A stretch of 64,000 bases of DNA from Dehalococcoidia bacterium (GCA_965249275.1 CBDFLQ010000005.1:195030-259029); one strand, 5' to 3'. Counted from the first letter of the stretch, positions 9,302 to 52,723 are shown. Notes: generated by a model from the sequence alone, not told the origin. Numbers and translations are program-made.

Positions 9302-9455
9302 CTGCTCACCTCCGCTCTCGATTCGCTTGTTTCCCATGACAGTTTAATCCGTCCAAGCTCCCGCATACACCCCCACCCCCTCAACCATCCCGATAACCTC
9401 ACCAACACTTTTCAGACATCCTTTGCGACCTACCCAGCATCCCACTCTTGACTGT

Positions 9456-17931: not shown

Positions 17932-19589
17932 GGAGCCTGTCTCACAAGTGGGGTGGGGTGTGGCAAGAGTGAAGGGCTAGATGGGGTGTCATTTGAGCAA
18001 TGATCGGTCACGACGACTCATGCCGGGTGGCCGATGATTGAGTTGCGCACCAGCGATGGGATGAGATTGCGGCCCCATATGCGGGTTGTCCGGCCGTGCC
18101 ATACCCGCCACAGGGTGCGCAGATTGAAGGCCGAGGCCAACAGGCCCCACTCGGCGGCCACGTTGTTGAGGCCCCGCAGCAGGAACCTACGCGCCGCCTG
18201 TTGCTCTTTGATGATCCCGAACACCGGCTCTACCAGCCCCTTCCTGCGACGGTACAACTCTCTGGCTTCATCGCTGCCCATCCAGGACCGATGACGACGC
18301 AAGGCTGTGTCGTGGGGCCCTATCTCAAGCCCTCGCCCATGTCGGCCGTCCCTCGTACACACCCCGAAGACCGGGCACCCTCGGCAGATGGCCCCCGAGG
18401 CCCGGTAGAGCCTCATCGGCATCCCACGGGTGCGCTTGATTCGGGTGAAGCGTAGTCGTTGTCCTTGCGGACAGATGTAGCTGTCGGTATCCTCATCGTA
18501 GGCGAATCGGTCCTTGTGATAGGGGCGGCCCAGTGCCCGACGCTGTGCCTCAGGCATCACAACTTTCTGCTCTCTGCGCCCACACTGCTGCAGATTGCTC
18601 CCTGAGTGATAGCCCGCATCGGCCAGCGTCGTCTCAGACCTGAGGCCGGTGGTCTCCTCCGCCCTCTGAAGCATTGGAACGAGTTGGGAATGGTCGTCGG
18701 GATCATCGGCTACCTCTACTGCAGTGATCAACATGCCCTTCCCGCCTGTGTCGGTCTTCGTCGGCGATACCATCGCCTGTGCGTTGTAGCAGGGCGCTAT
18801 CCCCCGGCGAGTCCTCATCAGACGTGCGTCTTTATCCGTGAGGTTTATCTGTTTGATCTCACTGCGCTCCGAGAGTTCGTCCATAGCTCGGCGCACCTTC
18901 TCTCTCAGCGCCGTCTTCTCGGTCAACTCATCAGGCAGATGGACGGGTGCGGCATCCTCCCCCGTCTCGTTCTCAGCCTCCAGTTCCTTCAGCGACTGCT
19001 CCACACGCCTCAGCAGACGCTCCAATCCTTCTCCATCCAGGCTCCTGTCTCCCGTCGCATTCGCACCCACCTTCGTGCCGTCCACTGCCTGCAGCGTCAG
19101 GTCGATAAGGTCCATCCCGAGCGCCGTTTGCACTGTGCGCTTCAGCAGTTTACGCATCGACTGGCGATTGCTCTTGTAAAACCTCCACAGCGTGTTGTGA
19201 TCTGGACGCTGCCATCCCGTCAACCATAGATACGGTATCTGGTCACGGCAGGCCCCCTCCAGCTTGCGGCTCGACCTTACCCCCGTCATGAATCCGTACA
19301 GCCACACCCCCAACATTGCCCTGGGATGGTACGCCGGCGCTCCCGTCCAGCTTCCGTCAATGTCTACTCCCATCTCTGCCCAGTCCTCCCGTCCCAGTGC
19401 ATCGACGAACTCCGCCACGAACCGCACAGGATGATCTTCCGGCACCATCTCATCCAGGGTCGGTGGCAGCATCCACACCTGCTCTCGTCCCATCGGTCTC
19501 AGTGGCATCTCCATAACCTCCACTCAGAGCTTCTCCCCTCCTAGTTTACCCTCATGCATAAACCTCCACTCCCTTTTGAGACAGGCTCC
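17932..19589 (-). mobile_element. IS1182-family insertion sequence (~1.66 kb) with imperfect ~25-bp terminal inverted repeats
   Basis: Left end GGAGCCTGTCTCACAAGTGGGGTGG. The right end reverse-complemented reads GGAGCCTGTCTCAAAAGGGAGTGG. CTA sits immediately outside both ends (17929-17931, 19590-19592). Single transposase ORF inside. Confidence 0.85.
18018..19523 (-). CDS. IS1182-family (IS5-like DDE) transposase
   Basis: 501-aa ORF. N-terminus LPPTLDEMVPEDHPVRFVAEFVDAL (transposase DUF772-type) and C-terminal DDE region with ADAGYHS and VEPVFGIIKE. Confidence 0.85.
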   Translation of the reverse strand: MEVMEMPLRPMGREQVWMLPPTLDEMVPEDHPVRFVAEFVDALGREDWAEMGVDIDGSWTGAPAYHPRAMLGVWLYGFMTGVRSSRKLEGACRDQIPYLWLTGWQRPDHNTLWRFYKSNRQSMRKLLKRTVQTALGMDLIDLTLQAVDGTKVGANATGDRSLDGEGLERLLRRVEQSLKELEAENETGEDAAPVHLPDELTEKTALREKVRRAMDELSERSEIKQINLTDKDARLMRTRRGIAPCYNAQAMVSPTKTDTGGKGMLITAVEVADDPDDHSQLVPMLQRAEETTGLRSETTLADAGYHSGSNLQQCGRREQKVVMPEAQRRALGRPYHKDRFAYDEDTDSYICPQGQRLRFTRIKRTRGMPMRLYRASGAICRGCPVFGVCTRDGRHGRGLEIGPHDTALRRHRSWMGSDEARELYRRRKGLVEPVFGIIKEQQAARRFLLRGLNNVAAEWGLLASAFNLRTLWRVWHGRTTRIWGRNLIPSLVRNSIIGHPA

Positions 19590-22187: not shown

Positions 22188-22383
22188 GATCTCCATCCGT
22201 AAACTTGGGGAACTGCTCGCCCTAAGCCTGTCGAAGGGTCGAGCGTAAGCGCATGCCTAGTGCGTCATTCCTGCGGAGGGCACATTTGTGCCTCTGGTAT
22301 ACAGGCTGCAAGTACGCCAAGCTGAAAGTTTTCCTCCGGCGGAGCGTGAGCCCATCCCCCCACTTGTATGCTACCCTCAACGC

Positions 22384-24540
22384 ATGAGAACTGCTTCCTT
22401 GGCCCTCCTTTTCCTCATCGCCGCCGCCCTCCTCTCAGCCTGCTCCACCGACCCGACGCCCACACTCATACTCACACGCACAGCCACTTCCCCGTCCCCC
22501 ACCCCTGTGCTGCCGGACACGCCAACACCCGTGCGTGCCGTTCCCCACATCCCAATCCCGACCAGGGAACCCACGCCGACGCCTAATGTACAGTCCACCT
22601 TGCCAACCCTCACACCCACGCCGAGCACCAGCGGAGAGGCGCGCGCTCTCCTTGCGTCGGGTGCAGCGGCCCTCAGCGAAGCCAAAGGTGCCGCCTTTCA
22701 AATAGACGCCACACTTCAAGCCGGGACCGAAAACTTTTCCATTAATTATTCGGGGGACTTTGCTGTAATACAGTACGTTTCCACAATTGCCACCGTGACA
22801 ACTCCTGAGGGAAACGTATTCAAGAGTCGCATAATCTCAGGATTCCACGAGTTCTATTTTTTCAATGAGACGACTCGAGAGTGGGAATCTTCAGACTATA
22901 GGGACGCGCCGTTTGTCACCAACATTGGCGCCCTTTTCGGATGGCGATGGGATATGCTTACCGGCTTGTCCCTCGGAGACCGAAAGACAATTGAGGGCGT
23001 TGAGTCTCAGGCGGTGTCGGGCCGACTGGATTCGCTACAGTTTAGTGGCCATCGTGGAGACTTTGAAGCTACTTATTGGTTCGGCGTGGAAGACAACCAT
23101 TTGAGGAAGGTCTCTCTATCGGGCATCATCCAACTCGACGAAGAATATTCAATTGTTGGTGTCGACGCTCAGCCCGGGGCCCAATTGTCCTTGGAATTGA
23201 CCGCCCGAGTGTTCGATCACGGCAAAAGAGTTCCCGTGCTTACACCGGACCCCTACTTTCCTGTCTATTCCGGTCACAAGGGGATACTGCTGGACGACGG
23301 CCGGGTCCTTATGGCGGGAGGATTTACCGGCTTCGTAGCCAACAACAACCTCATCATTCCCTCTCCTGTCGGTCCCGTCCAGATATACAACCCATCCACT
23401 GAAGAATGGGCTTTATTAGAGCCTATCGAAGGCCCAGGACTGCTCTATTCCATAGTCGAGCTGGTCGATAAGAAAATTCTCATGGTCGGAATGCGCAGTG
23501 ACGAAGAAGGCGAAGTTGTCCCTATGGCCTCTTTGTTCGATGCCGCCTCGGACTCTTGGACCGCCGCCCCGCGGCCCACTGCCCTGAGAGCCCAACCTAA
23601 CTTACTGCTGCTTCAGGACGGACGCGTCCTGATGACCGGAGGATGGGCCGTCACCGATAACGATGCCATGTTCTTCGCCGATCCCGAAAACTTGAACTCA
23701 TCCGAGATTTTTGAACCCTCCACCGGACTATGGACGCAAGCGGCGCCCACTCACAAGGTGATGGAAGGACAGAGGTTATCCTTATTGGAAGACGGCCGCG
23801 TCCTGGCGATCGGGACGGCAGGGGATGCATATGCCCCGACATCTCATGCAGAAGTATATGATCCCGCAACGGACGAATGGAGCGTCTTGGAAAGCTTGGA
23901 CCCCCACTATGTGCCCACCAATGTGGTCAGACTCGCCGATGGAAGGCTGCTGGTGACGGGCGATTACACCGCAACGGATAATGCGAGCATCGTACATCGC
24001 GCTGCTGGAGTAGTCACTCTCCAGCTTCCCGACGGTACCCTCCTAACCTTTGAGTATGACGACACCGGGATACAATCTGTCCAGCTTCCCGACGGCACCC
24101 GAATATCCAATGCGGACTTCGGGGCCCGGTTCTTTGGGGCTAAGTTGTATGATCCCTCCATCGACCTTTGGGCCCCCGCGGGAATGACGGCCCCTGCTGG
24201 ACTGATGATCCACCCACGAGAGGCAGCCACTTTGACCCTACTATCCGACGGACGAATACTAGCCGCTGGAGGGGTGAAAGTGGTTCTACCGTGGAGATTC
24301 TTCCGCACTCAAGACCCTTCTAGCGAAGACCCAACATTGATCTCCTTCACCGAAATCTTCGATCCGGTTACCGGTCTGTGGTCATTGGGGCCTGAGCTCT
24401 CCGAACCGCGAGTGGACCACTCTGCAACCGCGCTGCCCGATGGACGCGTGTTGATTGCCGGCGGCATCGGCTTAACTCGGACAGAGAACCCGGAGATTTA
24501 TCCGCTGGCTGCGTCCGAAGTTATAGACCCTAACCCTTAA
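22384..24540 (+). CDS. lipoprotein with Kelch-type beta-propeller repeats
   Basis: Start placed at MRTASLALLFLIAAALLSAC (lipobox). PT-rich linker, then repeated DGRVLMAGG / DGRVLMTGG / DGRVLAIG / DGRLLVTG / DGRILAAGG / DGRVLIAGG blades. Confidence 0.7.
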   Translation: MRTASLALLFLIAAALLSACSTDPTPTLILTRTATSPSPTPVLPDTPTPVRAVPHIPIPTREPTPTPNVQSTLPTLTPTPSTSGEARALLASGAAALSEAKGAAFQIDATLQAGTENFSINYSGDFAVIQYVSTIATVTTPEGNVFKSRIISGFHEFYFFNETTREWESSDYRDAPFVTNIGALFGWRWDMLTGLSLGDRKTIEGVESQAVSGRLDSLQFSGHRGDFEATYWFGVEDNHLRKVSLSGIIQLDEEYSIVGVDAQPGAQLSLELTARVFDHGKRVPVLTPDPYFPVYSGHKGILLDDGRVLMAGGFTGFVANNNLIIPSPVGPVQIYNPSTEEWALLEPIEGPGLLYSIVELVDKKILMVGMRSDEEGEVVPMASLFDAASDSWTAAPRPTALRAQPNLLLLQDGRVLMTGGWAVTDNDAMFFADPENLNSSEIFEPSTGLWTQAAPTHKVMEGQRLSLLEDGRVLAIGTAGDAYAPTSHAEVYDPATDEWSVLESLDPHYVPTNVVRLADGRLLVTGDYTATDNASIVHRAAGVVTLQLPDGTLLTFEYDDTGIQSVQLPDGTRISNADFGARFFGAKLYDPSIDLWAPAGMTAPAGLMIHPREAATLTLLSDGRILAAGGVKVVLPWRFFRTQDPSSEDPTLISFTEIFDPVTGLWSLGPELSEPRVDHSATALPDGRVLIAGGIGLTRTENPEIYPLAASEVIDPNP

Positions 24541-24575: not shown

Positions 24576-25409
24576 CTAAGGCCGCCAAGCCTCGGGAATC
24601 GGGCCGCTGGGCGGGTATCCACCCTGGTCGTCGTGGGTCTCCTCTCCAACCAGCGGAGGATTGAACACGCTCATCAGGTAGAAATCGGTGTTCGCCTGTA
24701 TCTGGTGCCGGTCCTTGGGCCCGACTACGTATACCGTCCCCGGGGCAAGGTCCCACTCCTCCCCTGTCGTCTGGTCCTTCACAGAACCTTCGCCCTCCAG
24801 GATGTAGTTAGCCTCCACGTGGTTCTGGTACCAGAGGACAGTGCTCTTGCCCGCAGGGGCGCGGGGCGTAGATATTGTGAAGCCGCACCCGTCTTCCTGG
24901 GTGAGGTATCGATAGGCGTTCGCGCGGCCGTGGCCTATTACGATTACCGGGATGTCTTCCAGTCTTTTCACGTACATAGTTCGGCCCGCATCACCCTGCC
25001 AGGCAGGGGGGATATCGCCGGTTGGGGGGAAGGCGCCGTCCGCGTCGTGTCTCTCATTACCCATCACGGCGGGGCTGAAAATACTGACCAAGTGGACATC
25101 AGTCTTGGCCGTTAGACGATGTCTATCCTTAGGCCCGACCACGTACAGTCCTCCGTCCTCCAGGTCCCAACTATTGCCGTTGCTCAGGTCTGTCACCTCG
25201 ATGACCCCTTTGATGATCAGATTCCCCTCCACGTGGTTCTTGTAGTGAAGGTCGATGGAGAATCCCGCCGAGAAACGGACGTCGGCAAGGGAGAAGCCGC
25301 AACCGTCGGCCTTAGTCAGGAGACGCCTGGCATGCAACACCTTGTCGCCGTCGCGTCGCACCATCTCTTTGTCGGTCCCGGCCAGATCATCCAGCCTTCT
25401 TGCGAACAT
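24576..25409 (-). CDS. fused di-EctC (two ectoine-synthase-like cupin domains), tandem copy 5
   Basis: 277 aa. Both halves align to the EctC pattern (M.VR.L.DL.GTD...HYKNHVEG...GLYVVGPKDRH...VF.P...G.E.HD.DG.YPP). GGAGGTG lies upstream of the ATG. Confidence 0.8.
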   Translation of the reverse strand: MFARRLDDLAGTDKEMVRRDGDKVLHARRLLTKADGCGFSLADVRFSAGFSIDLHYKNHVEGNLIIKGVIEVTDLSNGNSWDLEDGGLYVVGPKDRHRLTAKTDVHLVSIFSPAVMGNERHDADGAFPPTGDIPPAWQGDAGRTMYVKRLEDIPVIVIGHGRANAYRYLTQEDGCGFTISTPRAPAGKSTVLWYQNHVEANYILEGEGSVKDQTTGEEWDLAPGTVYVVGPKDRHQIQANTDFYLMSVFNPPLVGEETHDDQGGYPPSGPIPEAWRP

Positions 25410-25514
25410 AATTGCACCTCCAAATGATGTGGCCGCTCATATGTCGACCCCCCAGCGGAGGATCTTGGGCAGTACGAGCGGCCACCTGGTCCGCGGAATT
25501 TTCTGCCTATCGCG

Positions 25515-26348
25515 CTACGGCCGCCACCCCTCGGGGATGGGGCCGGTGGGTGGGTAACCTCCCTGGTCGTCGTGGGTCTCGCCACCGTATATTGGCGGGT
25601 TGAAGACACTCATCAGGTAGAACCCGGTGCTGGACTTCAACTGGTGCCGGTCTTTAGGCCCGACCACGTACAGCGTGCCCGGGTACAGGTCCCACTTCTC
25701 GCCAGTTGTCTTGTCTTCGACGGAACCCTCGCCTTCGAATATGTAGTTGGCCTCGACGTGGTTCTGGTACCAGAGGACGATGCCATCGCCCGCAGGGGCG
25801 CGGGGCGTGGATATAGTGAACCCGCACTCGTCATCATGGGTGAGGTAGCGGTATGCCTTGGTGCGCCCGTGGCTTATGCCGACCACGCGGGTCTCCGAGA
25901 GCCTTCTTACGAACATGGTCCGGCCGGATTCTCCCTGCCAGGCGGAGGGAATCTCGCCGGTAGGCGGGTAGGACCCGTCGGCGTCATGCCTCTCGTTGCC
26001 CATTGTAGGGGGGCAAAACACGCTGACTATGTGCGCATCTGACTTGGCCGTACCCCGGTGCCGGTCCTTCGGGCCGACAACGTAAAGGTCCCCGGGGCCC
26101 AGGACCCAGCTGTCGCCGCTGGTCAAGTCAGTCAACTCCATTTCGCCGGTAACGATGAGGTTTCCCTCCACGTGATTCTTGTAATGCAGGTCTGTGGACA
26201 TGCCCGCAGAGATGCGGACGTCGGAAAAGGAGAAGCCACAGCCGTCAGCCTTGGTGAGCAGGCGCCTGCCCTGAAGTTTCTTGTCGCCGTCGACCCGCAG
26301 CATCTCCTTGTCCGTTCCGGCCAGGTCTTCCACTCTTCTAACGAACAT
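25515..26348 (-). CDS. fused di-EctC protein, tandem copy 4
   Basis: Start moved to MFVRRVEDLAG (ATG at 26348, GGAGGTG 6 nt upstream). The track ORF extension to 26447 overlaps the upstream gene. Confidence 0.8.
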   Translation of the reverse strand: MFVRRVEDLAGTDKEMLRVDGDKKLQGRRLLTKADGCGFSFSDVRISAGMSTDLHYKNHVEGNLIVTGEMELTDLTSGDSWVLGPGDLYVVGPKDRHRGTAKSDAHIVSVFCPPTMGNERHDADGSYPPTGEIPSAWQGESGRTMFVRRLSETRVVGISHGRTKAYRYLTHDDECGFTISTPRAPAGDGIVLWYQNHVEANYIFEGEGSVEDKTTGEKWDLYPGTLYVVGPKDRHQLKSSTGFYLMSVFNPPIYGGETHDDQGGYPPTGPIPEGWRP

Positions 26349-26370
26349 AACTACACCTCCGGGTTTGGTC

Positions 26371-27204
26371 CTACGGCCTCCACGCCTCTGGGATGGGACC
26401 GTTGGGCGGGTAATTGCCCTCTTCGTCGTGAGTTTCGCCCCCGACAAGGGGCGGGTTGAAGACGCTGAGCAAGTACGTATCGGTGAACTTCACGGTCTGG
26501 TGTCGGTCCTTGGGCCCGACGAAGTACATGGTGCCGGGGGCCAGGTCCCACTTCTCGCCGGTGGTCAGGTCTTCCACCGTCCCTTCGCCTTCCAGGATGT
26601 AGTTCGCCTCCACATGGTTCTTGTACCAGAGGACGATACCCTTGCCCGCAGGGGAGCGGGGTGTCGACATGGTGAAACCGCAACCGTCCTCCTGGGTGAG
26701 GTAGCGGTAGGCCGTGGACTTGCCGTGGCTGATACCGACTACCCTGGTGTCCTCCAGGCGCTTCACGAACATAGTCCGCCCATTCTCTCCCTGCCATTCG
26801 GGTGGGATTTCGCCGGTGGGCGGGTAGGAGCCGTCCGCGTCGTGCCGCTCGGTGCCGAGGGTCGCGGGGTTGAAAACGCTGACGATGTGGATGTCGCTCT
26901 TGGCGGTGATCCGGTGCCGGTCCTTGGGCCCGACCACATACAAACCTCCGCCGCTCACGTCCCAACTGTTGCCGTTGTTGAGGTCTTCCACCTTCAAGTC
27001 GCCACTGACCACCAGGTTCCCCTCGACGTGGTTCTTGTACCAGAGGTCGATTGACCATCCCTCCGATAGCCGAACGTCCGACATTGAGAAGCCGCAAGCG
27101 TCGGCCTTGGTGACCAGGCGCCTGGACTGCAATCTCTTGTTGCCGTCGACGCGCACCATCTCCTTGTCCGTGCCGGCGAGCTCCTCCAACGTTCTTACGA
27201 ACAT
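26371..27204 (-). CDS. fused di-EctC protein, tandem copy 3
   Basis: 277 aa, collinear with the other copies, with an SD-like GGAGGTG upstream. Confidence 0.8.
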   Translation of the reverse strand: MFVRTLEELAGTDKEMVRVDGNKRLQSRRLVTKADACGFSMSDVRLSEGWSIDLWYKNHVEGNLVVSGDLKVEDLNNGNSWDVSGGGLYVVGPKDRHRITAKSDIHIVSVFNPATLGTERHDADGSYPPTGEIPPEWQGENGRTMFVKRLEDTRVVGISHGKSTAYRYLTQEDGCGFTMSTPRSPAGKGIVLWYKNHVEANYILEGEGTVEDLTTGEKWDLAPGTMYFVGPKDRHQTVKFTDTYLLSVFNPPLVGGETHDEEGNYPPNGPIPEAWRP

Positions 27205-27295
27205 AACTTCACCTCCAGATCCTTTTCATATATACGGGTCTCGGGGGACAGTCTAACTTAAACCGAGAAAGCGGACACTCACCATTGCCGGCTCT

Positions 27296-28129
27296 CTACG
27301 GCCTCCAGGCCTCAGGGATGGGGCCGGTGGGGGGGTAGCCGCCCTGGTCATCGTGGGTCTCATTGCCGACGAGGGGCGGGTTGAATACGCTCACCAGCGC
27401 GAAGGCCGTGTTGAAGGACATCAAGTGCCTATCCTTCGGGCCAACGAAGTACATCGATCCGGGAGCCAGGGCCCACTTTTCCCCCGTGTTCAGGTCATCG
27501 ACGGAACCCTGGCCCTCCAGAACGTAGTTGGCCTCGACGTGGTTCTGGTACCACAACTCCTTCCCGTGGCCCTCCGAGGAACGGGGGTTAGAGATGGTGA
27601 AGCCGCAGCCGTCGGCCTGGGTGATGTAGCGGAAGGCTTGGGCACCCGTGCCCCGGACGCCGACGGCCTGGGCATCGGACTGTCTCTTCACGATCATGCT
27701 GCGGCCCGACTCACCAGCCCAGGCAGGTGGAACTTCACCGGTTGGGGGATAAGCGCCGTCTTCGTCAGGGGTCTCATCGCCTTTGAGCGCTGGGTTGAAA
27801 ACCGTGACGGCGTGCAATTCGGTCTTGGTCGAGACGTGATGCTTGTCCTTCGGCCCGACCACGTACAAGTCCCACGCCCCGACCTCCCAGCTCTTGCCGG
27901 TGGCGTACTCCGTAACCGTGGCACTGCCGGAGACTATGAGGCTTGCCTCCACATGGTTCTTGTAGTGACAGTCGATCTCCCAGCCAGCGGAGAGGGTGAC
28001 GTCGGCGAGGGAAAAGCCGGCGCCGTCATCCCTGGTTACTAATCGGACGGCCTTAAGCCACAGGTCTCCATCCTGCCATTTGACTTCCTTGTCGGTGCCT
28101 GCGAGATGGTCAAGGGTTCTTACAAACAT
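27296..28129 (-). CDS. fused di-EctC protein, tandem copy 2
   Basis: 277 aa, same two-cupin layout (HYKNHVEASLIV...; WYQNHVEANYVLEG...). Confidence 0.8.
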   Translation of the reverse strand: MFVRTLDHLAGTDKEVKWQDGDLWLKAVRLVTRDDGAGFSLADVTLSAGWEIDCHYKNHVEASLIVSGSATVTEYATGKSWEVGAWDLYVVGPKDKHHVSTKTELHAVTVFNPALKGDETPDEDGAYPPTGEVPPAWAGESGRSMIVKRQSDAQAVGVRGTGAQAFRYITQADGCGFTISNPRSSEGHGKELWYQNHVEANYVLEGQGSVDDLNTGEKWALAPGSMYFVGPKDRHLMSFNTAFALVSVFNPPLVGNETHDDQGGYPPTGPIPEAWRP

Positions 28130-28192
28130 GTCGGGTGTCCTCCGGCAGATATTTCGTATAAGGGGATAAAGACTAGTCCGGCCTCAACTCTC

Positions 28193-29035
28193 TCATGCGT
28201 ACCTAGGTATCCACGCCTCGGGGATGGGGCCGGTGGGCGGGTAGCCGCCCTGGTCATCGTGGGTCTCATTGCCGACGAGGGGCGGGTTGAATACGCTTAA
28301 CAGGTAGAAGCCGGTGGTGGTGTTAACCTGGTGCCTGTCCCTGGGGCCCACAAAGTACATGGACCCGGGGAACAGGTCCCATTTCTCGCCAGTGGTCAGG
28401 TCTTCGGCAGTCCCCTCGCCCTCAATTACATAGTTAGCTTCCACGTGGTTCTTGTAATGGAGCACGATGCCGTCTCCCGCAGGAGAGCGGGGGGTGGAAA
28501 TGGTGAAGCCGCATTCATCTGCCTGGGTGAGGTAGCGATAGGCCTTGGCAGCGCCATGGCTAACGCTGACTTCACGGGTGTCCGCAAGTCTCTTGAGGAA
28601 CATCGTCCCTCCCGAATCACCGGCCCATGCGGGTGGGACCTCGCCCGTCGGTGGGTATGCGCCGTCCTCATCGGGTTTTTCGTTGCCGATAAGCGCGGGG
28701 TTAAATACGGTGACGGCGCGCATCTCGGTTTTAGTTGACACGTGGTGCTTGTCCTTCGGCCCGACCACATACAAGTCCCCCGGGCCCACGTCCCAGCTTT
28801 TGCCGGTGGCATATTCCGTTAGCGTCGCGTTGCCGGAAATGATGAAGCTGGCTTCGATGTGGTGCTTGTAGTGGCAGTCTATCTCCCATCCTGCAGAAAG
28901 CCGGACGTCGGCGAGGGAGAAGCCGACAAGGTCGCTCTTGGTCACAAGCCGCGCGGCTCTGAGCCACAGGTCTCCGTCCTGCCATCTGCCTTCTTTGTCG
29001 GTACCTGCGAGTTGGTCAACGGTTCTTACGAACAT
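28193..29035 (-). CDS. fused di-EctC protein, tandem copy 1
   Basis: 280 aa, same layout, with a slightly extended C-terminus. Confidence 0.8.
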   Translation of the reverse strand: MFVRTVDQLAGTDKEGRWQDGDLWLRAARLVTKSDLVGFSLADVRLSAGWEIDCHYKHHIEASFIISGNATLTEYATGKSWDVGPGDLYVVGPKDKHHVSTKTEMRAVTVFNPALIGNEKPDEDGAYPPTGEVPPAWAGDSGGTMFLKRLADTREVSVSHGAAKAYRYLTQADECGFTISTPRSPAGDGIVLHYKNHVEANYVIEGEGTAEDLTTGEKWDLFPGSMYFVGPRDRHQVNTTTGFYLLSVFNPPLVGNETHDDQGGYPPTGPIPEAWIPRYA

Positions 29036-29164: not shown

Positions 29165-30337
29165 TCAGCCTTGACTAAACATTTGCTCTAAAACCCACGG
29201 ATTTGCAGAATCCATTAGTAGTTTATCTATTCTCAAACGGTCTTCTTTGTGTAGCAATTGAAGTGAATCAGGTGACATTGCAGCAACGCCAGAGGTTTCG
29301 CGCATCAACCTTTCCATGAAGCATACTCCAGAGGCATCCTCGGGCATTGATATCATTTCACTATAGCGAAGTGCTTCCAGCAGATCACTAAAATGCTTTG
29401 ATCCTTTGGTCCAAGAAACTACACTGATTTTGTGCAAATTGTCTTGCCCGGGCAACACGGTTACTGAGACATCCTGCTTATAAGTGAGGGAAGCAGCAAA
29501 ATGCAGCGTTGATCGAAAGGACTGTACACATTTGTCGGCAATGGGTAACGGGCGGTCTCCATAAGAGCTTTTCTTATACCAACTGATTCCCAGTCTTTTA
29601 GCAAGTTCATTTAAGCTTCTCTTTGTATTGAAGAACCTCCTCTTGTAGGTTATCCATACTGTGCGCGCCGCTCGGTTTTGGTGCCTCATTGTCATTCTGT
29701 CCCAGTGGTTTAGGAATGATTCACCTTGAGGAATTAATGCTGTATCGTACAGAACAGCGCGATATCCAGCTAGGAAACTGACACTATGGTCTGCGAAATC
29801 CAAGTCTTGGAGGTCTATCCTGTTGAACTGTTGATCATGTTGCTTACAAGCAAAAGTGCCAGTGCATGCTTTGTCTATACCGATTGGCTGTGGTTCAAAT
29901 ACGGATGGATTTGACAAGTCTATCGGATGCTCCGGACTACTCTGCATGAATAGGTGAGTCCAGTTTTGAGGACTCCAGTTGAATTCCAGTACCTTGCCAG
30001 AAATGTCTTTGAATAATCCCAGGACATTTCGTTTCGAGATGGCGTGACAGTTAACCGCCGGTTCAGAACAGAGTTTTCCATCCTCGTTAATCACGAACAA
30101 GCAATGACCACGATAATTCTGAAATGAGCTTCTTAATTGACCGAACCTTTTTGCTGCAACAGGTTTCTTATCCTTAGGTACGTATGTATCTCTTCTTTTG
30201 TTTAGTCCCAATTCCCTGCTGTGCCTACTTTCTTGGCGGTTTATCTCTGATCCTTTATTGGAACCCTGTTTTTCATTTTTTCGAGATGAATCCTCATATA
30301 CCAGCCATGAAAGGCTGGATGTGTTGTGCCGTCCCAT
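29165..30337 (-). CDS. hypothetical protein, low-GC orphan
   Basis: 390-aa ORF in a clearly AT-richer ~1.3-kb block. The ATG overlaps the upstream stop as TAATG. Lys/Arg/Ser-rich N-terminus and scattered Cys/His motifs (AVNCHAISKR, CTGTFACKQHDQQF). No family recognised. Confidence 0.5.
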   Translation of the reverse strand: MGRHNTSSLSWLVYEDSSRKNEKQGSNKGSEINRQESRHSRELGLNKRRDTYVPKDKKPVAAKRFGQLRSSFQNYRGHCLFVINEDGKLCSEPAVNCHAISKRNVLGLFKDISGKVLEFNWSPQNWTHLFMQSSPEHPIDLSNPSVFEPQPIGIDKACTGTFACKQHDQQFNRIDLQDLDFADHSVSFLAGYRAVLYDTALIPQGESFLNHWDRMTMRHQNRAARTVWITYKRRFFNTKRSLNELAKRLGISWYKKSSYGDRPLPIADKCVQSFRSTLHFAASLTYKQDVSVTVLPGQDNLHKISVVSWTKGSKHFSDLLEALRYSEMISMPEDASGVCFMERLMRETSGVAAMSPDSLQLLHKEDRLRIDKLLMDSANPWVLEQMFSQG

Positions 30338-31536
30338 TAAGTGTCCTTGCTCAAAAACTCCAACGGCAGCTTGGACAGCAGTTCCAGCCCCGACTCCGTC
30401 ATGACGAAAGTGTCAATGAGCCCCGCGGACCGGGCATCCTTGCCCCGAGAAAATATCTCGTAGTTGGTGACAAATCCCGGCTGCATCGGCTCGTCGACGA
30501 ACCCGCCACCCACGACACGCGTGTGCCCCACCCAGTCGGGTGGCAAAGAGAGGCCAACATCGTAGCCTCCGCGGTCCACCTCACCGGCCAGCCCTAAGGA
30601 TGCGAGATATTCATCAATGTTCTTGCCGATAGCCGTGGGCGGGTCGCCGGGCTTGACCCGATCCTGGACGTAGGGGATGCTCTCCGCGAGGGCCTTCATG
30701 CGCTCGCTAGCCTTCTCGGTGGGCTCACCGAGACAAAAGAAGCGGCAAAGGTCGGCGTGGTAGCGATTGTAGACGCCACACACGTCGGCAAAGATAGTCT
30801 CCCCAGCCTCCAGGCGCATCCGGGTGGTGGGCTTGTGGGGCATACGGAACCCCTCCTTGCTGACGACGCATCGGATGGCGGTTTCCTCGCCGCCGGCCTT
30901 GGCCATGGCGTACTGCATAGCGCCGTTGACCTCAAGCTCTGTAATACCGGGGGCGGCGGCTTCCAGCCCCGCCATGATTCCGATGTCGGCGATCTCGGCA
31001 GCCTTCCTCACACAGGCGACCTCCAGCGGCGACTTGGTGAGTCCCACGGTATCTACAATCCATGACCCGTCGACAACACGAGCCCCGGCTCCCGACATGC
31101 GCTCCTCCATAGCCTGCATCATCGCAGGCGAGGGTGCGTAGGCCCACTTTTCAATGCCGACGCAGCCGCCGAGCAGGCCTCGGTCTTTCATGGAGTCGAT
31201 GACCGTTCCCAGCTGTGGCCCCATCGGGTGGAATGGGAAGGTAGCGTAGAAGACGGCCTCGTCGATGTAGCAGAAGTCGTTGACCATGCGCTCGTGGTAG
31301 GAGTCAAAGAAGAGAACCTTCTCGGAGTCGGCCCGGATGACGAGCCCCGTGGGCGAGGCATGGTAGAACCAGATTATGTCGAAACCCGTGAGGTAGGTGA
31401 TGTTCCTGGGCGAGCTGACGTAGAGGACGTCGATCCCGCGGTCAACCATTCTCTGGCGCACCTTGGCTCGGCGGGCGTCATATTCGTCGTTGGGAAACAC
31501 GGCCCCAAAGGTCCTTTCGTTGGGCAAGTCAGTCAT
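30337..31536 (-). CDS. M24-family metallohydrolase with creatinase-type N-domain (creatinase / Xaa-Pro peptidase / DoeA-like)
   Basis: 399-aa ORF. N-domain ...RRAKVRQRMVDRGIDVLYVSSPRNITYLTGFD; pita-bread domain with FADVCGVYNRYHADLCR and later acidic ligand positions. Confidence 0.75.
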   Translation of the reverse strand: MTDLPNERTFGAVFPNDEYDARRAKVRQRMVDRGIDVLYVSSPRNITYLTGFDIIWFYHASPTGLVIRADSEKVLFFDSYHERMVNDFCYIDEAVFYATFPFHPMGPQLGTVIDSMKDRGLLGGCVGIEKWAYAPSPAMMQAMEERMSGAGARVVDGSWIVDTVGLTKSPLEVACVRKAAEIADIGIMAGLEAAAPGITELEVNGAMQYAMAKAGGEETAIRCVVSKEGFRMPHKPTTRMRLEAGETIFADVCGVYNRYHADLCRFFCLGEPTEKASERMKALAESIPYVQDRVKPGDPPTAIGKNIDEYLASLGLAGEVDRGGYDVGLSLPPDWVGHTRVVGGGFVDEPMQPGFVTNYEIFSRGKDARSAGLIDTFVMTESGLELLSKLPLEFLSKDT

Positions 31537-31691
31537 TGTCGTCTCCTTATTAACTCACTTTGATGGCACTGGGTTATTCGAAGAATTCAAGAGAGTCTTC
31601 GAGGCTAACCAGGGTTAGGCCTCAGGCGAAAGAGAGCAAGGAATCATGGAACTTACAATACCGTCAGCCGACCGCGCGGGGCAAGGGGGAG

Positions 31692-34283
31692 ATGGCGCAG
31701 TGGCAGTGTTATCATTGTGCAGATGCTAAGGGATTCGCGAAAATGAACGAAGCTACAGCACGGATAAAGATCAACGGACTGCTTGAGAAGGCAGCTTGGC
31801 GTTTCTTCCCTGAAGGGGATAACCCTGCCAACATTCAGCTTGAGCCGGGAGTCGCGCTCAAGCCATCCGACCTGGACCAAATTGGGAATGATTTTGAGAA
31901 AACAGAGAAGGGATTCATAGATTACCTTCTTCTGGATGAGCGTGGATTCCCCCTCGTTGTGCTCGAAGCCAAGTCAGAAAAGTTGCAGCCGCTGGCCGGA
32001 AAGGAGCAGGCCCGGAGATATGCCCGCTCCAAGAACTGCCGCTTCGTCATCCTATCCAATGGCATCCTGCACTATTTCTGGGACTTGGAGCGGGGCAATC
32101 CCTACATAATCACCAAGTTCCCAAAGCCGGAGTCGGTTGCTGGGTACAGTAAGGTTAATCCCGACCCAAAGCGATTGATTGCCGAAAAGGTAGATGCCGA
32201 CTACATCGTTCTCAGCCAGCGGCCCAACTACCTTTCCGAGGCAGCGTGGAAGAACGAGGCCGAGCGACAAAACTTCATTAGCTCCAACAAGCTTCGCTTT
32301 CTCCGAGACTATCAGTCGAGGGCCGTCCATGCCCTTCAACGGGCCGTTAAGGACGGTAATGACCGCTTTCTGTTCGAAATGGCAACTGGCACCGGGAAGA
32401 CGCTTACCGCCGCGGCCGTCATAAAGCTGTTCCTCCGCTCGGGCAATGCATACCGGGTCCTGTTCTTGGTGGACCGCCTTGAACTCGAGGTGCAGGCCCA
32501 TAAGGTCTTCACTGACCTCCTATCGGCCGATTTCCAAACCGCCATATACAAGGAGAGGCGCGACGACTGGCGTTCGGCTGAGATCGTGGTCACCACCGTC
32601 CAATCCCTGCAATTCAACAACAAGTACCAGGCCCTCTTCTCTCCCACCGACTTCGACCTCGTGATTTCCGACGAAGCCCACCGCTCCATCAGCGGCAACG
32701 CGCGAGGGGTGTTTGACTACTTCGTCGGCTATAAGCTTGGCCTCACTGCGACGCCCAAAGACTACTTGCGAGGATCCGACAAGACCGGTCCCAACGTCCG
32801 TGACCCGCGCGAGGTGGAGCGGAGGCTGCTGCTGGACACCTACCGCACATTCGGATGCGAAAGCGGTCAGCCAACCTTCAGGTACTCACTTCTTGATGGA
32901 GTCAAGGACGGATACCTCATCAACCCCACCGTAATAGACGCTCGGACCGAGGTGACTACACAACTCTTGGCAGAAGACGGCTTTGTAGTTTCTTCCACCG
33001 ATGATACCGGCGAAGAGCATGAAGAGACTTTCAAGCAGCGGGAGTTCGAGAAGCGGTTCTTCTCCGATGCGACTAACCAACTATTCTGCAAGACGTTCTT
33101 GGAGAACGCACTAAAAGACCCGGTAAGCGGAGAGATCGGCAAGTCCATCATCTTCGCTGTGAGCCAGAACCACGCCGCCCGACTCACTCAGACCCTGAAT
33201 GAGATCGCCGACGCCATGTTTCCGGGCAAATATCAGTCCGACTTCGCCGTTCAAGTCACCTCCCGAGTTCAGGACGCTCAGCAGTTCACAATCAATTTTG
33301 CCAACAACAATCTGATGGGCTCGGGCAACTTGCTGTCCTCATACCGCACCAGCAAGGCTCGGGTCTGCGTAACCGTCGGCATGATGACCACGGGCTACGA
33401 CTGCACGGATATCCTGAACCTTGGCATGTTCCGTCCCATCTTCTCCCCCACCGACTTCGTACAGATCAAGGGGCGGGGAACACGTAAGCATAACTTTCTT
33501 GAGCATCTGCATGATCCCGACGCCGCAGATGCCGTCGCCGACCCCGAAAAGACCACTTTCAAGCTCTTTGACTTCTTTGCCAACTGCGAATACTTCGAGA
33601 CCGAGTTTAACTACGACCAGGTAATCCAGTTGCCGCGGCCTCAACCTCGCAGTGACGGGGGTGGAAACGGAGGGGACGACCCGCCCCCGACGATCTTCAG
33701 TGGCTACGAGCATATGGGCGAGGACATCCTAAAGGAAATCAAGGAAGTGCAAATCGGGTCTGAGGGCATGAAAATCGACCGCATGTTTTTTGACCGGTTC
33801 GCGGACGCCGTCAAATCGGACGACGCTGTCAAAGAAGCAATCGAGGCCGGCCAGTGGGACCGGGTCATCGACTACGTGAACCGGGAGGTCTTTGACAAGC
33901 CCGAGGAATACTACTCCCTGGAAAAGCTCCGTAGAGCCGCTTCCGTCGACCGCCGCCTCAGCCTGCGGGAAATTCTTGAAAAGGTCTTCGACCTCATTCC
34001 CGCCTTCAAGTCCAAAGACGAACTGTTGGAAGAGGAGTTCAACAAGTTCGTTGCCGACCACAAGCCTGACCGCTCCGCTTCCATTCTCGCCATCAAGACC
34101 TTCTTCAAGGCGTATATCACCAACGGGATCACCCGAGAGGCTGTTGACAATAAGGAGTTCAACTGCCTGGCTACCAACGCCGCGTTTACTATGAAAGACT
34201 ATAGGGCGGTCCCCGAAAAATACCAGGAGCTCGTTCCAGAATACATCAAGGACTACGTCCCACTGAACCAGTTCGCAGCGTAA
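31692..34283 (+). CDS. hsdR: Type I restriction enzyme R subunit
   Basis: N-terminal nuclease domain (IDYLLLDERGFPLVVLEAKSE), SF2 helicase motifs (FEMATGTGKT, VISDEAHRS, QIKGRGTR) and a long C-terminal helical domain. The start is uncertain: ATG at 31692, 31743 or the track start 31560. Confidence 0.85.
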   Translation: MAQWQCYHCADAKGFAKMNEATARIKINGLLEKAAWRFFPEGDNPANIQLEPGVALKPSDLDQIGNDFEKTEKGFIDYLLLDERGFPLVVLEAKSEKLQPLAGKEQARRYARSKNCRFVILSNGILHYFWDLERGNPYIITKFPKPESVAGYSKVNPDPKRLIAEKVDADYIVLSQRPNYLSEAAWKNEAERQNFISSNKLRFLRDYQSRAVHALQRAVKDGNDRFLFEMATGTGKTLTAAAVIKLFLRSGNAYRVLFLVDRLELEVQAHKVFTDLLSADFQTAIYKERRDDWRSAEIVVTTVQSLQFNNKYQALFSPTDFDLVISDEAHRSISGNARGVFDYFVGYKLGLTATPKDYLRGSDKTGPNVRDPREVERRLLLDTYRTFGCESGQPTFRYSLLDGVKDGYLINPTVIDARTEVTTQLLAEDGFVVSSTDDTGEEHEETFKQREFEKRFFSDATNQLFCKTFLENALKDPVSGEIGKSIIFAVSQNHAARLTQTLNEIADAMFPGKYQSDFAVQVTSRVQDAQQFTINFANNNLMGSGNLLSSYRTSKARVCVTVGMMTTGYDCTDILNLGMFRPIFSPTDFVQIKGRGTRKHNFLEHLHDPDAADAVADPEKTTFKLFDFFANCEYFETEFNYDQVIQLPRPQPRSDGGGNGGDDPPPTIFSGYEHMGEDILKEIKEVQIGSEGMKIDRMFFDRFADAVKSDDAVKEAIEAGQWDRVIDYVNREVFDKPEEYYSLEKLRRAASVDRRLSLREILEKVFDLIPAFKSKDELLEEEFNKFVADHKPDRSASILAIKTFFKAYITNGITREAVDNKEFNCLATNAAFTMKDYRAVPEKYQELVPEYIKDYVPLNQFAA

Positions 34284-34291
34284 ACCAGGTC

Positions 34292-36094
34292 ATGCTGGAC
34301 TCAGACACCAAACGCCGCATAGATACGGCCCGGGACATCCTGGTGGGCAAGGTGCCCGACCCCAAGAGCCAGGTCGAGCAGATCACCATTGCCCTCATCT
34401 ATAAGTTCATGGACGACATGGACGCCGAAAGCGAAGAGCTGGGCGGCAAGCGGACATTCTTCGCCGACGGGTTCGCAAGGTACGGCTGGGCCAAGCTCAT
34501 GAGCCCCGGCATCGGAGGGCACGAGACGCTGAACCTCTACGCCGAGGCCATAACCAAGATGCCGGAGAACCCCGGCATTCCCCAACTCTTCCGGGAGATC
34601 TTCAACAACGCTTATCTTCCCTACCGGGACCCCGAGACCCTACGCTCCTTCCTGAAAGTTATTGACGGGTTCAGCTATGACCACTCGGAGCGGTTGGGCG
34701 ACGCATTCGAGTATCTCCTCTCCGTCCTGGGCGCCCAGGGCGATGCCGGGCAGTTCCGCACCCCGCGCCACATCATAGACTTCATGGTCTCCGTCATAGA
34801 CCCGAAGAAGGATGAAGTGGTGCTGGACCCCGCCTGCGGCACCGCCGGCTTCCTCATCTCATCATACAAGCACATCCTGGTCTCCAACACCGGCGAAGAC
34901 GGCAGCAGCACGCTAACTCCCGACGACAGGGGCCGGATGGCCTCCAACTTCAAGGGCTACGACATCTCTCCCGACATGGTGAGGCTATCCCTGGTAAACC
35001 TCTACCTCCACGGATTCGCCGCTCCCCAGATATACGAGTACGACACCCTGACCAGTGATGAGCGGTGGAACAAGTACGCCGACGTAATCCTTGCCAACCC
35101 GCCCTTCATGTCTCCGAAGGGCGGCATCAGGCCGCACAACCGCTTCTCCATCCAGTCAAAGCGCAGCGAAGTCCTGTTCGTGGACTACATGGCGGAGCAC
35201 CTAACCGCAAAGGGCAGGGCAGGCATCATAGTCCCCGAGGGGATAATATTCCAGAGTCAGAACGCCCACAAACGGCTGCGCAAGATGCTGTTGGAGACAT
35301 GCCTGGTGGCCGTAGTCTCCCTGCCGGCGGGCGTGTTCAAGCCTTACTCCGGGGTCAAGACCTCCATCCTGATACTCGATAAATCACTGGCGCGAAGGAC
35401 GGACAGCGTAGCCTTTTTCAAGGTGGAAAACGACGGCTTCGACCTCGGCGACCAGCGGCGTCCTATAGACGCGAACGACCTGCCACAGACGGCCCGTGCG
35501 GTCCGGGAATGGCTGGATGGCCTCCGGTCAGCGCAAGGGGCTATGGTGCGGGAAGAAAGCGCCGTCTACACAGCCGGGCCCGGCGAGCATGGCATGACCG
35601 ACCTGCAGGTCCTTATGGAGAGGGGGGCCGCTCTCTCGGCGAGCAAGGCGGAGATTGCCGCCGACGGGGAGTGCAATCTGAGCGGGCAGCGGTATCGAGA
35701 AAAGACTCTTCAGCATTTGTCAAAGTGGCCTATGGTGAAGGTCAGGAGCATCTGTAAAGAGATTCTCAGCGGAGGCACTCCGTCAACAAAAAACGAGGAT
35801 TTCTGGTCAGGTTCTATCCCTTGGATTACAAGCGCCGATATTGTGGATATCAAGACTGCCATTCCACGCAGGCATATAACCAAGGACGCTATTGCAACTA
35901 CGGCAACAAACCTGATTCCGAAGGGTAATGTGATAGTCGTTACGAGAGTCGGACTTGGGAAACTGTTCCGGAACAACTTTGACGTCTGCATAAGCCAGGA
36001 TTCTCAGGGGCTGATACTTAAGGACTTGGCTGATGCTGACTACCTCGTACATGTACTGCAAAGAGCTGTCGTGGCATTTAAAGAGCTAGGCTAA
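34292..36094 (+). CDS. hsdM: Type I N6-adenine DNA methyltransferase (HsdM) running without a stop into an HsdS target-recognition domain
   Basis: HsdM N-domain, AdoMet motif VLDPACGTAGF and catalytic NPPF (ILANPPFMSP). From ~35732 (MVKVRSICKEILSGGTPSTKNEDFWSGSIPWITSADI) the sequence is a typical HsdS TRD. Terminated by TAA 36092-36094. Confidence 0.85.
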   Translation: MLDSDTKRRIDTARDILVGKVPDPKSQVEQITIALIYKFMDDMDAESEELGGKRTFFADGFARYGWAKLMSPGIGGHETLNLYAEAITKMPENPGIPQLFREIFNNAYLPYRDPETLRSFLKVIDGFSYDHSERLGDAFEYLLSVLGAQGDAGQFRTPRHIIDFMVSVIDPKKDEVVLDPACGTAGFLISSYKHILVSNTGEDGSSTLTPDDRGRMASNFKGYDISPDMVRLSLVNLYLHGFAAPQIYEYDTLTSDERWNKYADVILANPPFMSPKGGIRPHNRFSIQSKRSEVLFVDYMAEHLTAKGRAGIIVPEGIIFQSQNAHKRLRKMLLETCLVAVVSLPAGVFKPYSGVKTSILILDKSLARRTDSVAFFKVENDGFDLGDQRRPIDANDLPQTARAVREWLDGLRSAQGAMVREESAVYTAGPGEHGMTDLQVLMERGAALSASKAEIAADGECNLSGQRYREKTLQHLSKWPMVKVRSICKEILSGGTPSTKNEDFWSGSIPWITSADIVDIKTAIPRRHITKDAIATTATNLIPKGNVIVVTRVGLGKLFRNNFDVCISQDSQGLILKDLADADYLVHVLQRAVVAFKELG

Positions 36095-36127
36095 GGCTCA
36101 ACCATAAGGGGTGTAACCAAGAAGCAA

Positions 36128-36865
36128 TTGGCGGACCTAAGCATTCCGCTCCCCCCGCTTCCCGTGCAACGGGAGATAGTGGAGGAGATAGAGGGGTATC
36201 AGAAGGTGATAGACGGGGCGAGGGGGGTGGTGGACAACTACCGGCCCCACATCTCGGTTGACCCGGACTGGCCACTGGTGCCAATCAAGTCAGTTGCGGA
36301 TGTCGAAAGTGGATTTGGCTTCCCTATCGCTTTCCAAGGCAACCTCAATGAGGCTATTCCATTCCTTAAAGTCAGCGACATGAACTTACCAGGCAACGAG
36401 ACGGTGATTACCTCTTGGAACAACTCAATCTCCAACGACGTTTTGAGGGAACTTAGGGCCAAGTCATTCCCCAGCGGGACTGTAATTTTCCCGAAGATCG
36501 GTGCCGCTATTGCTACTAACAAGAAACGTATCCTCAGTCTTGAGTCCACTTACGATAACAATGTAATGGGCATAGTTCCCAATACGCAAAAGCTGTTATC
36601 GCGCTTCTTGTACAATTGGTTGATTGGATTTGACCTGTCCCATTGGGCTAGTGACAGTCAACCGCCATCAATGAGAAAGACGATGGTTGAGCGGCACAAC
36701 ATTCCCTTCCCACCCCTCCCCACCCAACAAGCCATCGTCGCCGAGATCGAAGCTGAGCAAGAGCTTGTCAACGCCAACCGGGAACTGATAGCCCGCTTTG
36801 AAAAGAAGATTCTGGGCGTGATTGACCGGGTGTGGGGAGCGTCCTCCCCCGGCATTCCCGAGTAA
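36128..36865 (+). CDS. hsdS: Type I specificity subunit remainder (central conserved region + TRD2 + C-terminal conserved region)
   Basis: In the same frame as the upstream ORF. Across the TAA the sequence reads ...FKELG*GSTIRGVTKKQLADLSIPLPPLPVQREIV... The only nearby start is a weak TTG at 36128. The second conserved helix is IPFPPLPTQQAIVAEIEAEQELV. Confidence 0.7.
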   Translation: MADLSIPLPPLPVQREIVEEIEGYQKVIDGARGVVDNYRPHISVDPDWPLVPIKSVADVESGFGFPIAFQGNLNEAIPFLKVSDMNLPGNETVITSWNNSISNDVLRELRAKSFPSGTVIFPKIGAAIATNKKRILSLESTYDNNVMGIVPNTQKLLSRFLYNWLIGFDLSHWASDSQPPSMRKTMVERHNIPFPPLPTQQAIVAEIEAEQELVNANRELIARFEKKILGVIDRVWGASSPGIPE

Positions 36866-52686: not shown

Positions 52687-52723
52687 TCCGTTCTCCCTGA
52701 TGTTCTAGAATTTAGCGTCCGTC

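Follow-up and report, generated by a model that had tools for sequence, protein, structure and literature searches.

The 64,000-nucleotide stretch of Dehalococcoidia bacterium DNA analyzed here (GCA_965249275.1 CBDFLQ010000005.1:195030-259029, hereafter the window, with positions counted from its first letter) carries five consecutive genes on the minus strand whose products each contain two domains of the ectoine synthase (EctC) type. From the first transcribed to the last these are E5 (28193..29035, 280 aa), E4 (27296..28129, 277 aa), E3 (26371..27204, 277 aa), E2 (25515..26348, 277 aa) and E1 (24576..25409, 277 aa). The intergenic gaps E1-E2, E2-E3, E3-E4 and E4-E5 measure 105, 22, 91 and 63 bp, respectively, and all five genes have an ATG start with a GGAGG motif a few nucleotides upstream. 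For E2 an alternative, longer open reading frame (ORF) starting at a TTG extends to 26447 and overlaps E3; we set the start at the ATG at 26348 because a Shine-Dalgarno sequence lies ahead of it and the resulting N-terminus agrees with those of all homologues. Scans of the array for promoters and terminators yielded fewer matches than shuffled controls and were uninformative. A previous sequence-only reading of the window had described five minus-strand paralogues of 277-280 aa, each with its own GGAGG, and every particular of this description that could be checked proved correct. The analysis presented below shows that E1-E5 are paralogues, each conserved in its own right, within a separate bicupin branch of the EctC (PF06339) family.

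Searches against Pfam assigned all five proteins to PF06339 (Ectoine_synth), with two matching stretches each and scores of 218 (E1), 211.2 (E2), 220.4 (E3), 222.2 (E4) and 216.7 bits (E5), that is 211-222 bits and E values of 1e-63 to 1e-66. This is their best family, the next one, Cupin_2, reaching at most 49 bits. Per half, the mean identity to EctC is 35-38%, with E values of 1e-21 to 1e-26 against the EctC structure 5ONO. The EctC-like nature of the module proposed from the sequence is thus confirmed, since the halves match PF06339 and no other cupin family scores better. With the NCBIfam model NF009806, which is named 'ectoine synthase', the ten halves taken singly score 104.6-121.3 bits, under the curated cut-off of 128 bits, whereas the whole proteins score 220-227 bits, above it. 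The whole proteins therefore pass only through the summing of their two halves, which explains why relatives are called 'ectoine synthase' in public records. One possible reading of E1-E5 is that the name is right and that they are genuine ectoine synthases, converting N-gamma-acetyl-diaminobutyrate (N-gamma-ADABA) to ectoine, present as fused pseudo-dimers whose multiple copies would serve dosage or distinct optima of salt or temperature. The best family, the score of the whole proteins and the database name of the relatives all agree with it, but each half alone falls short of the curated threshold.

E3 was chosen for modelling. Its AlphaFold2 model, built from an 85-sequence alignment, has a mean predicted local distance difference test score (pLDDT) of 96 and a predicted template modelling score (pTM) of 0.93 and shows two beta-barrels, and DSSP assigns two sets of beta-strands to it. 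Together with the two PF06339 stretches this model upholds the two-domain EctC fusion that had been proposed, and the conclusion that the window proteins have two EctC-type barrels per chain stands at the level of a predicted structure. When the model was compared to the PDB with Foldseek, almost all of the top 50 matches listed were two-domain cupins, among them quercetinase, oxalate decarboxylase, ureidoglycine aminohydrolase and YlbA (E about 1e-13 to 1e-15, template modelling score about 0.6-0.7, identity 8-17%). That these enzymes are the closest whole-chain structures would fit a second alternative, in which E1-E5 are metallo-cupins with a chemistry other than that of EctC (oxygenase, isomerase, decarboxylase, or KdgF-like ring-opening of non-nitrogen substrates) and owe their EctC likeness to ancestry only. 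It is at odds with the strength of that likeness, which was given above for each half and which no other cupin family approaches.

The ten halves were then aligned with the EctC sequences of P. lautus (5ONM/5ONN/5ONO) and Sphingopyxis alaskensis (5BXX), taken from the HMMER alignments. EctC numbering shifts by one between sources, so that Tyr84/85, Leu86/87, His92/93, Phe106/107, Pro108/109, Gly112/113, Glu114/115 and His116/117 denote the same residues. The iron ligands Glu57, Tyr84 and His92 are kept in all ten halves, and so are Tyr52, His55, Arg25, Gly64, Phe106, Pro108, Gly112 and Glu114. The earlier claim that Glu, Tyr and His are retained in ten modules is borne out on proper alignment, except that the histidine motif given as DRH reads DKH in the N halves of E4 and E5 (E4N and E5N). 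Other positions have changed. At the position aligned with Trp21 the N halves have Leu and the C halves Ala, Thr or Ser; eight of the ten halves have no Trp near it, and in E4N and E5N a Trp lies one residue upstream. Asn38, which is His in the S. alaskensis enzyme, is replaced by Ser or Ala in 10/10 halves, Thr40 by Val in the N halves and Pro in the C halves, Leu86 by Val in 10/10 halves, and Cys104 by Ser or Thr in every half. His116 has become Pro in E4N and E5N, and the N halves have a 4-residue insertion ahead of the Trp21 position. The contact positions that vary among E1-E5 are 21 in the C halves and 23, 38, 104 and 116 in the N halves.

Published work on EctC gives a scale for these changes. 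Thirteen residues are strictly conserved in 440 EctC-type proteins (Thr40, Tyr52, His55, Glu57, Gly64, Tyr85, Leu87, His93, Phe107, Pro109, Gly113, Glu115 and His117; PMC4795551); of these, Thr40 and Leu87 are lost in all ten halves of the window, His117 is lost in E4N and E5N, and the other ten are kept. Trp21 does not vary among 437 bona fide, ect-cluster EctC proteins, 145 orphans conserve it as well, and its exchange for Ala (W21A) leaves 9.7% activity (PMC6344544). The alpha-amino and carboxylate groups of the substrate are bound by Thr40 and Asn38, for which a role as proton relays has been proposed (PMC6344544). Within the N-gamma-ADABA contact set formed by Trp21, Arg25, Asn38, Thr40 and Tyr52, only Arg25 and Tyr52 are retained in the ten halves. 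For a genuine ectoine synthase the intact iron triad, Tyr52, Arg25 and Phe106 would be expected, but the replacement of Asn38, Thr40 and Leu86 in 10/10 halves, with no Trp at the Trp21 position, argues against one. The same data bear in two ways on a chemistry foreign to EctC: the change of the substrate-contact residues would suit it, but the Glu/Tyr/His site with Tyr52, which among described cupins is specific to EctC (PMC6344544), has been kept. The residue pattern of the window halves also holds across 139 bicupin family members of other genomes, with the triad present in at least 94% of them in each half, and the triad together with Tyr52, Arg25 and Phe106 in at least 90%. In a few family members the C-half equivalent of Glu57 or Tyr52 is lost.

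We next consider the age of the array. E1-E5 share 59-75% pairwise identity, E4 and E5 being 75% identical. Comparison of their halves gave 54-82% identity for N vs N, 63-77% for C vs C and 37-52% for N vs C. This N vs C divergence exceeds that within each type of half and places the internal duplication before the five-gene split in the Dehalococcoidia lineage. In a neighbour-joining tree each of E1-E5 groups with its own orthologue clade in related genomes; that of E5, for instance, comprises proteins of loci L001, L002, L005, L008 and L072. Orthologues display ratios of nonsynonymous to synonymous substitution (dN/dS) of 0.04-0.14 (E5 0.06-0.14, E4 0.09-0.14, E2 0.04-0.14, E1 0.05-0.08), and dS between the E1-E5 paralogues is about 1 or more. 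E1-E5 are an old, maintained set of distinct genes under purifying selection. The five-fold amplification of the sequence-only reading, if taken as recent, is not borne out: we rejected a recent tandem amplification because of the per-paralogue orthologue clades and the saturated dS. Pseudogenes were rejected as well, the ORFs and ribosome-binding sites being intact and dN/dS low. Five distinct orthologue groups under purifying selection, and not near-identical dosage copies, are also not what multiplication of an ectoine synthase for dosage would leave.

The history of the halves is less simple over the whole family. In the neighbour-joining tree of all members, N halves and C halves are not each monophyletic, and a single ancient fusion cannot be claimed. 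Within-protein identity of N and C halves ranges from 29 to 84% (median 47%), and this range, together with the lack of monophyly, makes repeated fusion or gene conversion likely. At the upper end, the halves of a bicupin of Bradyrhizobium arachidis (CP077970.1; L073 10001-10837) are 84% identical, which suggests that they arose by a separate, recent duplication and fusion or were made alike by gene conversion. In a tree that included 32 single-domain EctC-type proteins, the bicupin halves and P0148, a single-domain protein carrying the bicupin-type signature, form a clade apart from the proteins with Trp21 and Thr40 (neighbour-joining). Five distant bicupins of about 246-260 aa (P0127, P0129, P0135, P0136 and P0141) have the EctC triad in the N half alone and a degenerate C half; their sequences suggest a route from two active barrels to one. 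In locus L072 the last bicupin of the array (11796-12628) was called as two pieces of 63 aa and 218 aa, possibly a frameshift, a pseudogene or an assembly error.

It is conceivable that each window protein likewise has one catalytic barrel, the other being a structural or regulatory remnant, or that the proteins are non-enzymatic ligand binders. The distant members of about 250 aa whose C half has decayed and lacks the triad offer a precedent, as do the family members without the C-half Glu57 or Tyr52 equivalent, and in E4N and E5N Pro replaces His116/117, which EctC conserves strictly; the structural matches, moreover, include known bicupin hydrolases, for example ureidoglycine aminohydrolase. 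In the window, however, both halves of all five proteins keep every metal ligand, Tyr52, His55, Arg25 and Phe106, both are under purifying selection as parts of whole genes (dN/dS 0.04-0.14), and the triad is kept in both halves of at least 94% of the 139 members. On balance we consider an inactive second barrel, or a mere binding function, improbable.

To determine how widely such proteins occur we searched with E3. In total, 481 database clusters (90% identity) match it at E<=1e-10, the closest being P0001 with 97% identity. When one genome per species was scanned, 235 relatives came up; those in Dehalococcoidia reach 88% identity, and the others belong to Alpha- and Gammaproteobacteria, Rokubacteria, Binatia, Gemmatimonadales and Thermodesulfobacteriota. 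Of the proteins in a library of representatives at 50% identity, just 460 match one half at E<=0.001, and two stretches are seen in most of the best 35, so that bicupins make up a minor but noticeable part of a superfamily that is itself small. Tandem arrays are common in this family. Eight related Dehalococcoidia loci contain 3-6 copies and a second locus of the same genomes 4, related Dehalococcoidia genomes carrying seven to ten bicupin copies in all, and arrays of 4-6 copies occur in alphaproteobacterial and proteobacterial metagenome-assembled genomes (MAGs; L019, L022, L044 and L054). The closest relative of the window is L072, whose E3 orthologue is 97% identical. The second locus, with an M24 gene and four bicupins, holds members of four of the five clades.

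Upstream of the array and on the same strand lies a gene for an M24 hydrolase (30337..31536) with Creatinase_N and Peptidase_M24 domains (Pfam). Its best NCBIfam matches are the two ectoine hydrolase models, NF038259 (150.3 bits for a cut-off of 575) and TIGR02993 (119.6 bits for a cut-off of 613), and its closest solved structure is the ectoine hydrolase DoeA (6TWK, E 1e-28 over the full length), ahead of prolidases (5e-18). This DoeA-like gene is found directly upstream of the array in L005, L006 and L072, 0.4-1.3 kb away from it in L001, L002 and L008, and also upstream of the second bicupin array in L009-L011; no M24 match was obtained in the related loci L003, L004 and L007. Between M24 and E5 in the window is a 390-aa ORF (29165..30337, minus strand) in a stretch of low GC content (0.52), whose start overlaps the M24 stop by 1 nt and which has no Pfam or NCBIfam match. 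This ORF is absent from this place in most relatives, a 45% homologue occupying the same place in L002, and is probably an insertion outside the conserved unit.

On the other side of the array a plus-strand gene (22288-24540) encodes a protein of 750 aa that has Kelch repeats and, N-terminally, a region rich in Pro and Thr. It separates the array from an Amidohydro_2 gene (PF04909; 21057..22187, plus strand) whose product has PtmU3 and DitZ as closest PDB entries. Among the relatives, L007 and L072 share the Kelch insertion and L001-L006 lack it; where it is lacking, the Amidohydro_2 gene directly follows the array, and orthologues of this gene (91-98%) adjoin the array in L001-L006. Further along are a ureohydrolase gene of the agmatinase/guanidinobutyrase type (PF00491; 19979..20938, minus strand), which scores 198.8 bits against the agmatinase model TIGR01230 (cut-off 174.3), has guanidinobutyrase 3NIO as closest PDB entry (256 bits) and is syntenic in L001-L008, and three paralogous genes for M20 deacylases of the ArgE/DapE type (PF01546 and PF07687; 16547-17815, 14555-15799 and 13292-14539, minus strand). 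The M20 genes, the second tandem paralogue set of the island, are syntenic in one to three copies in L001-L008 and L072. A gene for an IS1182-family transposase (18018-19523, minus strand; 373 bits, above cut-off) lies between the ureohydrolase and M20 genes, with a 67% relative at a similar place in L008, and a 240-aa ORF without family match lies between the first and second M20 genes. The order M24, bicupins, Amidohydro_2, ureohydrolase and M20 is kept in most of L001-L008 and in L072, and the second locus (L009-L011) keeps M24 and bicupins.

Several other features of the window deserve mention. A DUF1989 gene (8690-9337, minus strand) is near the island, and the same family occurs beside bicupins in L078/L079, next to an amidase and M24. 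Upstream of M24 a type I restriction-modification set (31560-36865, plus strand) encodes HsdR (907 aa), an HsdM and HsdS fusion (600 aa) and HsdS (245 aa); at this position in L001, L005 and L008 only a match of about 130 nt to the HsdR N-terminus remains. Other paired or duplicated genes are a TldD/PmbA pair (47894-50569, plus strand), two adjoining short-chain dehydrogenases (51763-53638, minus strand) and a 599-aa protein with two CN_hydrolase stretches (56766-58565, minus strand). Leucine-rich repeat (LRR) proteins are encoded at 41310-43619 (plus strand) and 58639-60510 (minus strand) and form, with the Kelch protein, a group of eukaryote-like repeat proteins. These repeat proteins and the naming style of related MAG records hint at a possibly host-associated, perhaps sponge-associated, member of the Dehalococcoidia.

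Among the approximately 45 ORFs scanned in the window we found no GNAT (EctA), class-III aminotransferase (EctB) or PhyH (EctD) protein, in agreement with the earlier statement that ectA, ectB and ectD are missing from it. We extended this analysis to related loci with a Pfam census of 388 ORFs located within 3.5 kb of bicupins at 64 loci. A simple longest-ORF caller was discarded as it chose antisense shadow ORFs in the high-GC related loci; a frame-composition filter was used instead, for a rough census only. The most frequent families were TauD (12), Amidohydro_2 (11), DAO (10), MFS (10), AstE_AspA (9), Rieske oxygenase (8) and PhyH (6), and transporters recur. Class-III aminotransferase and GNAT, the ectB and ectA types, were not among the recurrent families at these 64 loci. 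The individual contexts are diverse and in every case of a catabolic kind. In an alphaproteobacterial one, two bicupins lie beside three AstE_AspA (DoeB-family) genes; others combine a bicupin with an amidase, M24, DUF1989, MFS and a TonB receptor, with four Amidohydro_2 genes, Amidohydro_3 and MFS, with a CoA-transferase, an enoyl-CoA hydratase and a GBBH-type dioxygenase, or with PhyH, a Rieske oxygenase, two TauD genes and a solute-binding protein. The Bradyrhizobium bicupin (L073) comes after an operon for an Opp-type ABC transporter, and at a distance of about 8-9 kb there are genes for ornithine cyclodeaminase and DAO. A GCV_T protein is encoded inside one bicupin array, and a sarcosine-oxidase-alpha-like protein beside another.

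These contexts bear on both of the alternatives left in suspense above. The absence of ectA, ectB and ectD from the window ORFs scanned and from the genes recurring beside the 64 related loci, and the presence of hydrolases and deacylases as neighbours, count against ectoine synthesis by E1-E5. The report that the orphan EctC of P. syringae complements an ectC mutant (PMC5924519) lends some credit to such an activity outside ect clusters, yet all in all we judge it highly improbable for the window proteins. The suggestion of the sequence-only reading that this is not ordinary ectoine synthesis is in line with the loss of Asn38 and Thr40, the missing Trp at the Trp21 position, the scores of the halves under the NF009806 cut-off and the lack of an ect context. 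As to a chemistry unlike that of EctC, the Rieske, TauD and PhyH oxygenases, CoA-transferase and enoyl-CoA hydratase encoded nearby in other phyla would be suitable partners for it, but the most constant partners in the lineage of the window are C-N hydrolases, including the DoeA-like enzyme. We hold it to be rather unlikely.

We are thus inclined, by a small preference, to see in E1-E5 predicted metal-dependent two-barrel hydro-lyases that would open or close rings, or hydrate amides or amidines, during the catabolism of ectoine-like nitrogen-rich solutes, each paralogue with its own specificity. They would use the same Lewis-acid chemistry as EctC, in which, through activation by a metal, water is added to or removed from the carbon of an amide, amidine or imine, and a ring is opened or closed. 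Their substrates would be other than N-gamma-ADABA, their role would be the breakdown of nitrogen-rich small solutes and not the synthesis of an osmolyte, and the five orthologue groups may handle different substrates or isomers. The Halomonas ectoine cycle, in which DoeA opens ectoine, DoeB deacetylates the N-alpha-acetyl isomer only and EctC re-cyclises the N-gamma isomer (PMC3187862), provides a model: the M24 enzyme would open a cyclic amidine, and the EctC-like enzymes would close the ring again on those acyl isomers that the deacylases cannot use and so return them to the cycle. EctC is also described to hydrolyse ring-size analogues of ectoine (PMC6344544). Given the conserved pairing of the bicupins with a DoeA-like M24 enzyme and with deacylases, the N-acyl-diamino acids and cyclic amidines put forward in the sequence-only reading are plausible candidate substrates. 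A more specific proposal, which we offer tentatively as one possibility, is that hydro-lyases with two active sites for cyclic amidines or imines, the DoeA-like M24 enzyme and the deacylases make up an unrecognised catabolic route for ectoine-like heterocyclic nitrogen solutes, the paralogues being split by ring size, acyl group or isomer.

Several points weigh against a role of E1-E5 in such a catabolism. The analogy to ectoine rests on distant similarity, since the M24 protein is far under the DoeA equivalog cut-offs. The operon structure of the array is deduced from strand and spacing only. ORF calling in the census was crude, with about 80-85% of known genes recovered, and related loci inflate its counts, which are not independent. 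Finally, outside Dehalococcoidia the contexts are heterogeneous (CoA-transferase/enoyl-CoA hydratase, Rieske and TauD oxygenases, opine-type oxidases) and imply no single pathway.

Genome and metagenome surveys take the presence of EctC as diagnostic of ectoine producers. For the bicupin subfamily the automatic database name 'ectoine synthase' is probably wrong, because key substrate-contact residues are absent despite the metal site and the genes lie in a nutrient-breakdown cluster. A bicupin branch that passes thresholds as a double domain without these residues would be miscounted as ectoine biosynthesis, which matters here with seven to ten copies per genome, and EctC matches should be used with this caution in practice. 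The array also gives a handle on orphan EctC function, as it offers a conserved M24 partner, deacylase and amidohydrolase neighbours and five orthologue groups for side-by-side screening. If the catabolic route proposed above were true, it would be the first defined function for a branch of the long-unexplained 'orphan EctC' proteins, and if E1-E5 open or close the rings of other cyclic amidines they would be of interest for the biocatalysis of ectoine analogues.

With canonical EctC (EC 4.2.1.108; 5ONM/5ONN/5ONO of P. lautus, 5BXX/5BY5 of Sphingopyxis alaskensis) the window proteins have in common the PF06339 family, the cupin fold, the Glu57/Tyr84/His92 site, Tyr52, His55, Arg25 and Phe106, and the Pro/Gly/Glu C-terminal lid motif. 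Canonical EctC is, however, a single cupin of about 130 aa that forms a head-to-tail homodimer, whereas E1-E5 have 277-280 aa with two domains per chain, lack Asn38, Thr40, Leu86, Cys104 and a Trp at the Trp21 position, and carry the 4-residue insertion in their N halves. Bona fide EctC is encoded with ectA and ectB, often also with ectD and ask_ect; none of these was among the window ORFs scanned or recurrent at the 64 loci, and the bicupin genes have catabolic neighbours in place of an ectAB context. Solitary or orphan EctC proteins (Czech et al. 2018, 2019) resemble E1-E5 in lying outside ect clusters, often in several copies per genome, and in keeping the metal ligands, and the function of such proteins is an acknowledged open question (PMC5924519, PMC6344544). 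Those described are single-domain proteins with 37-42% identity to P. lautus EctC that are reported to keep Trp21, which may shift by two, and most substrate-binding residues (PMC6344544; PMC5924519), whereas the window proteins are bicupins without Thr40 and Asn38, have no Trp at the aligned position and fall in a separate neighbour-joining clade. Literature searches (EctC with bicupin, EctC homologues, SAR202 or sponge Chloroflexi with ectoine) returned no description of a double-domain EctC or of the cluster, and a 2026 paper on the evolution of ectoine catabolism makes no mention of EctC, cupins or M24. The bicupin is not unique to the window, the family being sparse yet widespread and present in databases as 'ectoine synthase'. 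What is new is a distinct, uncharacterised bicupin branch of the known EctC family, the sequences being already in public databases under that automatic name.

The DoeA/EutD and DoeB/EutE module of ectoine degradation finds a parallel in the DoeA-like M24 gene that precedes the array and in the three AstE_AspA genes beside alphaproteobacterial bicupins. It differs in that the window M24 protein misses the DoeA cut-offs widely, the window deacylases are M20 and not AstE_AspA proteins, and no genes of the DoeC or DoeD types adjoin the window array. Known bicupin enzymes, namely quercetin 2,3-dioxygenase YxaG, OxdC, (S)-ureidoglycine aminohydrolase and YlbA, have in common with E1-E5 the two barrels in one chain; at only 10-16% identity, they use His-rich metal motifs, whereas the window proteins have the Glu/Tyr/His site of EctC.

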